From the NCBI GenBank assembly GCA_038109055.1, contig JAYNIM010000010.1:1-60238 (forward strand): a stretch of 60,238 nucleotides of DNA, written 5' to 3'. Made by a program: the position numbers and the translations under genes. The stretch comes from a bacterium. GTDB taxonomy: Bacteria; Margulisbacteria; Marinamargulisbacteria; GCA-2716485; JAYNIM01. The notes beneath the pieces are model-generated. The model was not told the DNA's origin and did no database searches. It saw only the letters and a list, made by a program, of their open reading frames with translations. The first letter of the stretch is position 1; each line of letters begins with the position of its first letter. Positions 57,880 to 60,238 of this stretch are shown here, piece after piece.

Positions 57880-58446
57880 ATGAAAAAAAAAATACGCAAC
57901 CTATTATTATTAATCCAATTAGCTACTTTATGGCTTGTTAACATACAAGCAGAAGAGTACCAATTGCATTATTTTAATAAATTTCAAACTAGAACATCGA
58001 TAACAGAGCCCGGCAACAACCAACTTTCTATCTATTTTCTCAAACAAAACTGGACAATAGCACTCCAAGACCCAAACAGCGCTATCGGTCAATCTATCGA
58101 AGAATTCAGCTTAAAAAAAGACCCCGTCTTCTATCCAAACCCCTTTCAAGTTAGAGACAACCCACAACTACAATTTGCAATCTCAAAAATCAGTCAAAAT
58201 GAATTCAATAACCTTAAATTCGAAATCAGAGCCTACGACTATAGAGGATTTGAAATTATAAGAAAATCATTCTTTAAAAATGACAAAGAATTTGTTTACA
58301 ACGATCGCAGTGACGTTACATACATTAATCTACACTTCGAAGAAGCCGAATTAAAAGAAAAATTCTCATCTGGCGGCTATGTATACCTTCTGTTAAAAAA
58401 CAACGACGTCATTGCCAAAGGACAATTTGCAGTTAAACCACAATGA
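57880..58446 (+). CDS. Small secreted protein consisting largely of a T9SS-CTD/FlgD-Ig-like domain
   Basis: Signal peptide ending IQA; VFYPNPF...IRAYDYRG...SSGGYVYLL...KGQFAV. Confidence 0.7.
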   Translation: MKKKIRNLLLLIQLATLWLVNIQAEEYQLHYFNKFQTRTSITEPGNNQLSIYFLKQNWTIALQDPNSAIGQSIEEFSLKKDPVFYPNPFQVRDNPQLQFAISKISQNEFNNLKFEIRAYDYRGFEIIRKSFFKNDKEFVYNDRSDVTYINLHFEEAELKEKFSSGGYVYLLLKNNDVIAKGQFAVKPQ

Positions 58447-59426
58447 AAAAACGACTAAAACATCTATTACTAATGGCATTTGTCATCTTAAATCAAGCAC
58501 AGGCAATCCCATTCACAGGCATCACAGAATCTGGAAGTTCTGCACGCCACATCGCCTTAGGAAGTATTGATGGATTTAGCAAAGGAGCAGATTCTATTTT
58601 TGAAACTCCTGCAGCACTATACAGAATCAAAACCTACGCATTAAATTCATTCTCGAGTAGCATCTTAGGTGATTTTGTACACTATAACAATTTAGCAATT
58701 GCAGGCAAATTCAAAGAAGGTTCCTGGGCAATTGGTATATGCGAAGTCATCCATCCAAACCAACCCTACACATTTTTTGGTCAACCAATGGCACACAATA
58801 GAGGCGGGGCAAATTACGCAGAACCTCAAGGTATTTTTGATATTAAACGAAGCATCATAAAAGCAGGTTATCAATATTCTCCTATAGAAACACGTCATTT
58901 TGGAGCAACAATCAATTGGTACAATGACAACATGATCGATAGCGTAGGAAGAGGCTGGGACATCGATTTAGGCGTGATTCAAGAATGGAACAATCTGGAA
59001 ATATCCTGCACGTTAAAAAATGGTTTAAAAAACAGAATATATTCTAAAACACAAACTTATAACCAAGAAAAACAAGAATACATAACAACCTATCCAACAG
59101 AGGACTTATCACGAGAATTAAATATCTCTGCAAAGTATATATGGAAAAGACTCTTCATTATGCCTCAAATTGAATTTAAAAGAAAAAAAATCATGCCTAG
59201 TATTGGATTAGAATATACACCCTGGTTTTTCAAACAAATGACCCTATACGCGGGATCAGAATCTAGCTTAATGCCAGACAACAGTACAAAAAGACGCCTA
59301 TCAACTGGCATAGGCTTAAATTTAGGAATTCTAACCATGTATTACGCCTATAAAAAAAGCGAAACACCTACCACTAGTTTAATAGAAAATGACCAACATC
59401 ATTTTTCAATTGAAATAATCCTTTGA
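58443..59426 (+). CDS. PorV/FadL-like outer-membrane beta-barrel
   Basis: Signal peptide ending AQA; SARHIALG...SIFETPAAL; GWDIDLG; terminal strand HHFSIEIIL. Confidence 0.72.
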   Translation: MKKRLKHLLLMAFVILNQAQAIPFTGITESGSSARHIALGSIDGFSKGADSIFETPAALYRIKTYALNSFSSSILGDFVHYNNLAIAGKFKEGSWAIGICEVIHPNQPYTFFGQPMAHNRGGANYAEPQGIFDIKRSIIKAGYQYSPIETRHFGATINWYNDNMIDSVGRGWDIDLGVIQEWNNLEISCTLKNGLKNRIYSKTQTYNQEKQEYITTYPTEDLSRELNISAKYIWKRLFIMPQIEFKRKKIMPSIGLEYTPWFFKQMTLYAGSESSLMPDNSTKRRLSTGIGLNLGILTMYYAYKKSETPTTSLIENDQHHFSIEIIL

Positions 59427-60238
59427 AGAAAATACTCCTATTTTTAGGCTTACTATGTTTGATGACTTACACCCAAAGTAAGGCAAATCAAATAAGTTTA
59501 GAAGTAGGCGTAAAAGATAAAAACACCCATGAATATTTAAAAAGCGGCACAAAAGAAATACTCTTAGAGTTATTCGATAAAAACAAGGAAAGTGTCAATT
59601 TTTCTGTTATACGAAGAGTAGAGGTAGATAATACAGGTTTCTTTAGCCTAACATTTGACCCCCCTAACAAAGAACAACTTAAAGAATCAAGTTATTTTAA
59701 AATTGCAGAAATTGGCAATCAAAACTATCCAATCGGTTTATCTGATTACACCCCCTTAAACATTGCTCTAAAAGCAGCCTATGCCCTAACCGCAAATACC
59801 TCAGACTCTTTAGTTCCCAACTACGAAAAGCAATTTCTGAAAGCAGGCATAGAAACCACGGGTAACCTAACTTTAACAGATAACAGTCGTTTAGATTTCG
59901 GTGAAACAACCACCCTAAATGTAAAAGGAGCCTTTGTATTTAAAGGCACGCCAATCACCCTAGAAATGTTAAATACATCTTACAGCCCAGCATCAAACCA
60001 AAATGCCACGAATCACAACTCTAACTACATTACCGCAAATACATTAGAAATCAAAAGCCTTGATAATATACATTCATTCATCTGGCTTTCTGAGTCCGGT
60101 ATTTCCAGCAACAAAAACCTTACCATCAACGGCAGCATCTCTGCCAATACGCTTCTCATCTCCAATGGCCTTACACTCACCGGTAATTTAAACATGGGTA
60201 CAAATCAACTAACTCCCGACACTCTAGCCTCTCTTCTC
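59423..60238 (+). CDS. Secreted tail-fibre/adhesin-like protein, 3' end beyond the window edge
   Basis: Not in the ORF track. TTG start overlaps the upstream stop (TTGA); open for 272 codons: MKKILLFLGLLCLMTYTQSKA|NQISLEVGVKD...VEVDNTGFFSLTF...ALKAAYALTANT...NLTINGSISANTL. Confidence 0.75.
   Translation, partial: MKKILLFLGLLCLMTYTQSKANQISLEVGVKDKNTHEYLKSGTKEILLELFDKNKESVNFSVIRRVEVDNTGFFSLTFDPPNKEQLKESSYFKIAEIGNQNYPIGLSDYTPLNIALKAAYALTANTSDSLVPNYEKQFLKAGIETTGNLTLTDNSRLDFGETTTLNVKGAFVFKGTPITLEMLNTSYSPASNQNATNHNSNYITANTLEIKSLDNIHSFIWLSESGISSNKNLTINGSISANTLLISNGLTLTGNLNMGTNQLTPDTLASLL

Follow-up and report, generated by a model that had tools for sequence, protein, structure and literature searches.

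The window analysed here is a complete contig of 60,238 nucleotides (JAYNIM010000010.1, labelled C10) from a bacterial genome assembly (GCA_038109055.1, labelled G000 and 93% complete). Its end carries three genes that may together encode a surface-display cassette: a small protein with a C-terminal domain (CTD) of the kind found in type IX secretion systems (T9SS), a PorV-like outer-membrane barrel and the beginning of a fibre. The open reading frames (ORFs) span 57880-58446 (188 aa), 58443-59426 (327 aa) and, for the third, 59423 to the window end (272 aa, with a TTG start and no stop). Both junctions are overlaps of 4 nt, ATGA between the first and second genes and TTGA between the second and third, and all three proteins have a basic-hydrophobic N-terminus ending in an AxA-type site, as judged by eye. 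The three coupled genes are real, and the original prediction of three overlapping genes with signal peptides is borne out in this respect. The motifs that it quoted (YPNPF, GGYVY and ISLEVGVKD...ALKAAYALTA), including those of the third ORF, which had been missing from its ORF list, are likewise found in the window proteins. One public contig, which may be the source sample, matches positions 57500-59964 without differences. A Pfam scan of the three proteins, which are too divergent for this approach, returned no direct match; once relatives are included, the assignments stand. The features of the locus are:

57880..58446, forward strand: small CTD protein and candidate adaptor, 188 aa, with a signal peptide, a ~55-aa flexible arm and a C-terminal T9SS-type CTD
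57952..58110, forward strand: N-terminal arm of the candidate adaptor, residues 25-77 (pLDDT 45-65, weakly conserved)
58111..58443, forward strand: CTD beta-sandwich, residues 78-188, YPNPF...GGYVY...KGQFAVKP (pLDDT mostly >90)
58443..59426, forward strand: PorV/PorQ-family 14-strand outer-membrane barrel, 327 aa
59423..60238, forward strand: 5' part of the fibre gene, 272 aa, cut by the contig end; the missing 3' end probably lies at G000:C6:1-657
59489..59794, forward strand: fibre N-terminal domain, approximately residues 23-124, divergent within its family (36,477 clusters)
60076..60193, forward strand: stalk repeat unit INGSISANTLLISNGLTLTGNL, with ~tenfold excess depth in public contigs and a near-copy at the start of C6

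The proteins of the cassette

The small CTD protein was modelled with AlphaFold2 on a 51-row alignment. Mature residues 54-164 form a confident beta-sandwich, preceded by an arm of low confidence. In a structure search with this model, solved T9SS CTDs appear in the top ten at Z 8.3-8.8, namely PorU (Z 8.8, rmsd 2.9, 98 residues aligned), mirolase (8.4), NucA (8.3, 75/75 aligned) and PorZ (8.3), interspersed with unrelated immunoglobulin-like (Ig) folds, and Foldseek returned generic Ig folds only. In terms of type A versus type B CTDs, Por_Secre_tail matches 41 of the 51 aligned CTD proteins at E<=0.1 (best 2e-6) and CHU_C matches 28 at the same threshold, all of these matches being weak. The traits that characterize T9SS CTDs are all present: the protein has an Ig-like beta-sandwich located at its extreme C-terminus, and this carries the YPNP and G-x-Y motifs. 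According to the model, then, the 188-aa protein is a CTD plus an arm of about 55 residues, without a cargo domain. Its earlier description as little more than a CTD is confirmed as far as the domain goes and has to be amended for the low-confidence N-terminal arm. Altogether, eight CTD-like proteins are encoded in G000.

The model of the window barrel has 14 strands and a pLDDT of 93. Its top Foldseek matches are the PorV chains 8gl6_F (E 3e-9, TM 0.71) and 6h3i_F, with FadL ranking below, and it has the feature of the PorV/PorQ family, a 14-strand barrel with an N-terminal NPA-type plug. By sequence, it matches PorV_fam (NCBIfam) at E=5e-4 and 19.7 bits and misses the 90-bit cut-off of the curated NF033709 model, and should therefore be placed on a distant branch of the PorV family; the best paralogous barrel in G000 reaches 53-57 bits against the same cut-off. 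Among 63 aligned barrels, PorV_fam is matched by 55 and PorP/SprF by 8. A sequence search of the PDB with the barrel profile reached PorV at E=0.35 only, and a barrel query against named genomes found no locus. The earlier view of this gene as a second PorV-like barrel is thus upheld by the 14-strand model, the top fold matches and the PorV_fam counts.

Barrels with additional parts are found elsewhere. At G000:C6:84479-90229 (L039), a PorV-like barrel is fused to Ig and SLH domains beside a 1,151-aa CTD cargo, and the SLH fusion could, judging by its domains, be a built-in cell-wall tether that replaces PorE. Barrels with C-terminal extensions precede fibres in two other loci (L192 and L203), and the barrel at G000:C1:546142-547575 (L033), which belongs to a fibre-CTD-barrel cluster, has a charged C-terminal tail with a hydrophobic end.

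The third gene had been read as encoding a tail-fibre-like N-terminal domain. The fold agrees with this, since an Atlas model of the domain aligns at TM 0.64-0.65 with the N-domains of fibres of the S74, Collar and Fib_succ_major types, whereas family membership is weak: on a profile built without it, the window domain scores 9.6 bits, a value reached by 2 of 2000 shuffles. The family itself is large (36,477 clusters at 50% identity). A sequence search of the PDB with the domain returned nothing significant, and two queries against plasmids gave no match.

The assembly is broken at the stalk repeat. In four runs, the repeat unit near the window end has a depth excess of about tenfold, and elsewhere in the assembly it recurs only at the start of contig C6; C6:1-657 is therefore likely to be the 3' end of the fibre gene, and the C10-C6 join through which it probably becomes so is inferred. 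Extension of the contig had been suggested as a way to look for a C-terminal S74 chaperone or lectin head. The probable tip at C6:1-657 has no Pfam match and no CTD match. Elsewhere, S74 or G2 domains end four of nine scanned fibre sequences (G000 paralogues and relatives).

Giant fibres reach 4,858 aa. At least eight genomes carry an extended giant-fibre cassette with a fibre A, a tyrosine recombinase and a giant fibre B (G000:C7:68282-91885, corresponding to L032 and L036; also L159, L160, L162, L163, L164, L166 and L167). The recombinase is XerC/D-like, judging by its motif. Between L160 and L162, a segment with the recombinase and a nucleotide-sugar enzyme gene lies in opposite orientations, and a search for inverted repeats around the recombinase found none that was convincing.

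Conservation of the gene order and linkage between the parts

Relatives were surveyed through barrels chosen by their similarity to the window barrel and not by gene context. Around 79 barrel matches, 78 regions were fetched, and 84 barrels were identified in them. As kin are not independent, neither the context counts nor the distance correlations given below amount to a statistical test. The barrel is present in 34 of 40 relatives. The order small CTD protein-barrel-fibre is found for 40 of the 84 barrels, in 22 of the 40 relatives, so that the conservation of the triplet on which the original prediction hinged is observed. The remaining barrels have only a small CTD protein (12), an adjacent large CTD cargo (14), a fibre directly upstream (2) or no such neighbour (16). 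In other words, 40 of 52 barrels with a small CTD protein, and 0 of 32 others, have a fibre next in line, so that within this sample downstream fibres go exclusively with small CTD proteins. The triplet order persists in at least 22 genomes and in several paralogous lineages whose barrels are 20-30% identical, and the stop codon of one gene often overlaps the start codon of the next. G000 itself has further clusters on contigs C7 (CTD, barrel and a 3,713-aa fibre) and C1 (fibre, CTD and barrel), as well as a CTD-barrel pair without a fibre. In a barrel tree built with a quick method, contexts cluster more than shuffled labels do, triplet barrels do not form one clade, and the window barrel sits on a long branch.

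The loci contain 64 fibre ORFs, 23 of which end inside the fetched DNA (one is a duplicate and some are broken by gaps). No CTD was detected in any of these 23 complete fibres of relatives, in line with the suggestion that the fibre may have no CTD of its own, nor in the top 150 representatives of the fibre family.

We also compared evolutionary distances over 39 triplets, or 33 after the removal of near-copies. The distances of the CTD correlate with those of the barrel (partial r 0.58 for n=39 and 0.56 for n=33) and, to a lesser extent, with those of the fibre N-domain (partial r 0.31 and 0.30; p 0.005 and 0.018), while fibre and barrel are weakly related (raw r 0.15 and 0.18, p 0.06-0.11). 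This pattern weakly favours the CTD protein as the link between barrel and fibre. It does not support the idea that the arm is the fibre-binding part.

Outside the class, the fibre domain is found in 51 of 61 genomes. In other classes, six small fibre-adjacent proteins (L179, L185, L195, L199, L204 and L206) have at their N-terminus three S-x-x-Y-like pseudo-repeats of ~19 residues each. Five of them have a CTD and one is cut off; where the protein is complete, the repeats are followed by a spacer domain and then the CTD. An arm of three pseudo-repeats would fit a trimeric partner.

The window contains one more barrel, in what we call cassette 1:

50435..51277, forward strand: second PorV-family barrel (cassette 1), paired with a conventional CTD cargo
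51264..52826, forward strand: S8 protease with its own CTD (cassette 1), a contrast case of cargo that needs no adaptor

Further CTD cargo in G000 comprises an S8 protease that has no barrel next to it and a GH81 glucanase accompanied by a barrel of its own (G000:C4:51050-53416 and C7:1153-5552). Large window ORFs of 1,276, 439 and 799 aa, at 14442-19584 and 44252-46651, have no Pfam match.

Host and candidate export machinery

The best PDB matches of the RpoB protein are 8h3v, 8gzg, 8i23 and 8syi (1335-1354 bits), compared with 1041 bits for 8dkc. We take the former to be cyanobacterial and clostridial RNA polymerases and the latter to be the Porphyromonas enzyme. Two adaptor homologues are labelled Margulisbacteria by NCBI. 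From its sequences, the host looks like a member of Margulisbacteria, outside the Fibrobacteres-Chlorobi-Bacteroidetes (FCB) group. The original prediction relied on the host being something other than an FCB bacterium with a complete canonical T9SS; the RpoB matches, the NCBI names and the lack of Gld and PorU matches, in searches where no positive control gave a signal, all agree with this. Close homologues of the barrel, of the SprA-like protein described below (54% identity) and of the adaptor are also filed among eukaryote proteins under the labels COSAG01 and COSAG02 (P0004, P0006 and P0053). These we assume to be protist single-cell assemblies, which hints at a protist-associated lineage.

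CTD-like domains occur in all 109 genomes of the phylum. As a candidate translocon, we identified a single-copy 1,735-aa putative SprA-like barrel at G000:C3:50238-55445 (L031), which scores 17 bits on TIGR04189 (cut-off 200) and has an Atlas lead of 0.87. Its family has members in 36 of the 40 relatives and in 107 of the 109 genomes of the phylum, and most of these proteins have a C-terminal Phe-type beta-signal. In 28 of 35 loci, the gene adjoins queA, recognised from its sequence, and usually an amidase gene too. The SprA profile partially matches 92 of the 109 genomes and none of 14 controls. Many genomes, G000 not being among them, also have a second family, of ~1,000-aa proteins, that shares this SprA segment.

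The other T9SS components gave a different picture. GldM was above cut-off in none of 41 genomes, with one 18-bit match, and the Bacteroidota bin used as positive control was also silent; GldL was found in 0 of 75, with no positive control giving a signal. GldK and GldN were not found in G000 at its 93% completeness, the GldN search having had no positive control. The FGE-sulfatase domain is absent from G000 and present in 7 of 41 genomes. Only the CTD end of the PorU profile is matched (positions 968-1087), and the sortase catalytic region was not found. Thus, of the SprA translocon and the PorLM motor, for both of which a search had been suggested, the former has a candidate, whereas GldL and GldM were not found by searches whose positive controls gave no signal.

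G000 has five MotA/ExbB genes, and flagellin was not found in it. It also has three sets of MotA/MotB-like and FliG genes (C1:38152-41499, C2:122379-126563 and C2:149192-152051). Among 41 genomes, FliG is found in 32 and flagellin in one. The flagellum-less MotA/MotB-FliG sets are candidate orphan rotary motors, judging by their gene content.

Interpretation and comparison with known systems

Taken together, these observations lead us to propose, with a probability of roughly 60%, that the conserved cassette works through piggy-back export, the small CTD protein being an adaptor that gives a CTD-less fibre trimer both an export tag and an anchor on its private barrel. All three proteins would cross the inner membrane via Sec, and the fibre would trimerise in the periplasm, where paralogues may use their terminal S74/G2 autochaperones and the fibre of the window probably an unrecognised tip. 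With its C-terminus occupied by a chaperone or tip, the fibre could not carry a CTD, so the CTD would sit on a separate small protein. One adaptor would then bind the N-terminal domains of the fibre trimer; at the lateral gate of the SprA-like translocon, its CTD would bind the cognate barrel. Because no PorU sortase is found, the CTD would not be cleaved, and barrel, adaptor and fibre would remain together as a surface adhesin mount. Candidate energy sources would be the flagellum-less MotAB/FliG sets and ExbBD/TonB sets.

Several observations weigh against this proposal. The distances of the adaptor arm track those of the barrel (partial r 0.26-0.28) and are uncorrelated with fibre N-domain distances (-0.03 to -0.08), and on the three-repeat profile the arms of the window adaptor and its class score no better than shuffles. 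In 12 of the 52 small-CTD cassettes, no downstream fibre is recognised. Among the 30 best fibre loci of other classes, viewed with flanks of 1.5 kb only, a CTD protein accompanies 5 and a same-strand barrel 4; no locus has the two together, and 21 lack both. With the three genes mostly non-adjacent there, the contiguous triplet is a feature of this class. The fibre N-domain of the window is a weak family member, and the fibre 3' end is joined to the window gene by inference alone. Homology to SprA is confined to profile positions ~555-716 and is always below cut-off, and the SprA-like family profile found no SprA chain in the PDB. Finally, the three secretins of G000 offer an alternative route of export.

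Some of these points would fit another arrangement, in which the fibre docks on the barrel directly, through its N-domain, while the small CTD protein caps or stabilises that barrel, as P. gingivalis PG1035 may do on PorP; such a cap has been proposed for PG1035 in the available part of PMC9143113. Both parts of the small CTD protein track barrel distances, two of the 84 class barrels have a fibre directly upstream, and the four other-class loci with a barrel have no CTD protein in view, their barrels directly upstream of fibres fitting direct docking equally well. However, the distances of the fibre N-domain agree more closely with those of the CTD than with those of the barrel, no barrel with a large CTD cargo or without a CTD neighbour is followed by a fibre (0/32), and the five other-class loci that pair a fibre with a CTD protein have no barrel in view. 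We therefore regard direct docking as quite unlikely. A similarly small chance attaches to the fibre leaving the cell by a secretin-based type II/type IV pilus route and attaching outside to the adaptor-barrel pair, or being escorted and then released by the adaptor. The secretins would allow this, giant fibres of 3,000-4,800 aa are a demanding cargo, and the known T9SS motor was not found by searches whose positive controls gave no signal. On the other hand, the near-universal presence in the phylum of CTD domains (109/109) and of the SprA-like gene (107/109) makes it likely that a CTD route exists, and release is at odds with the failure to find a sortase catalytic region. That the fibre gene is merely co-transcribed with a functionally separate CTD-barrel pair, its product making no contact with theirs, would suit the mostly split triplet outside the class and the fibre-less small-CTD cassettes, but is very unlikely given an order kept across genomes and divergent paralogous lineages, often with overlapping codons, and a small CTD protein that has no other domain able to carry a function.

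The adaptor reading has its closest parallel in Bacteroidota. According to the available part of PMC10994853, the CTD there attaches to its carrier barrel at SprA's lateral gate, and an input of energy draws the two of them out. Type B CTDs, as described in the accessible portions of PMC9143113 and PMC12618676, remain bound to cognate PorP/SprF barrels encoded adjacently (SprB-SprF; PG1035-PorP-PorE). The likeness is that a barrel gene stands beside each CTD gene and that the CTD is likely retained as an anchor (PMC9143113, PMC12618676, same portions). The differences are that the barrels described here score better to PorV/PorQ (55/63) than to PorP/SprF (8/63), that the CTD gene is cargo-free, its presumed cargo being a separate CTD-less fibre, and that the host lies outside FCB. 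The modular barrel-per-cargo arrangement suggested earlier agrees with the 14 barrels that adjoin a large CTD cargo; as a principle, however, it is already known for PorP/SprF in Bacteroidota. Judging by the gene content, the cassette likely works by a mechanism like the type B CTD-PorP pairing while standing outside canonical T9SS membership: CTD-bearing cargo and a carrier barrel of the PorV/PorP families are present, whereas motor, ring and sortase were not found (positive controls giving no signal) and the host lies outside FCB.

With the SprA/Sov-PorV translocon (6H3I, 8GL6), the system shares the PorV-like fold, the CTD fold and a giant barrel candidate with one SprA segment. It differs in that no GldL/M motor, GldK/N ring or PorU was found (positive controls giving no signal), and in that the candidate has 1,735 aa against 2,319 profile positions, with homology that is partial and far below cut-off. 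In the available part of a 2026 review (PMC13721041), the T9SS is said to be confined to a single phylum. If our proposal is true, CTDs, PorV-like carriers and an SprA-like barrel in a sister phylum of Cyanobacteria, without the known motor, would change ideas on the origin and the minimal form of the T9SS, and the provision of a CTD in trans would represent a novel mode of export for trimeric proteins in which a chaperone or tip takes up the C-terminus. It is tempting to go further and imagine a stripped type IX-like system in Margulisbacteria, with an SprA-like pore, a barrel reserved for each cargo and CTD adaptors for piggy-back export, driven by flagellum-less MotAB-FliG rotary motors instead of GldLM, in which the adaptor is a general tag and anchor for the fibre family of more than 36,000 clusters, including the mosaic adhesive trimer (MAT) fibres of Bdellovibrio. 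We consider this wider scheme unlikely as a whole; if true, type IX-type secretion would span the Terrabacteria-Gracilicutes divide.

No description of the cassette turned up in our search of the literature on PorV, T9SS or SprA in Margulisbacteria or other phyla outside FCB, on adaptors for fibres, on piggy-back secretion and on orphan FliG, with supplements and most subscription papers outside its reach. The available parts of 10.1101/2023.11.21.568195 and 10.1101/2023.01.06.522999 contain nothing on it. In a Marinamargulisbacteria symbiont, fimbria-like links to the host vacuole are described in the accessible text of PMC6784892, and the fibres are therefore plausible attachment organs.

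The N-domain of the MAT fibres is presumably homologous to the fibre N-domain family considered here. As far as the available text of PMC10769870 goes, MAT fibres resemble the present fibres in having a signal peptide, a conserved N-domain and a variable stalk and tip, with S74/G2 autochaperones occurring in paralogues of the window fibre. The same text leaves the surface partner of the MAT N-domain unidentified and mentions no barrel partner, and a 2026 review of MAT fibres names no anchor in its available part (PMC13689555). The adaptor-barrel pair is thus a candidate for the surface anchor of such fibres, a matter stated as open for Bdellovibrio MAT in that portion of PMC10769870.

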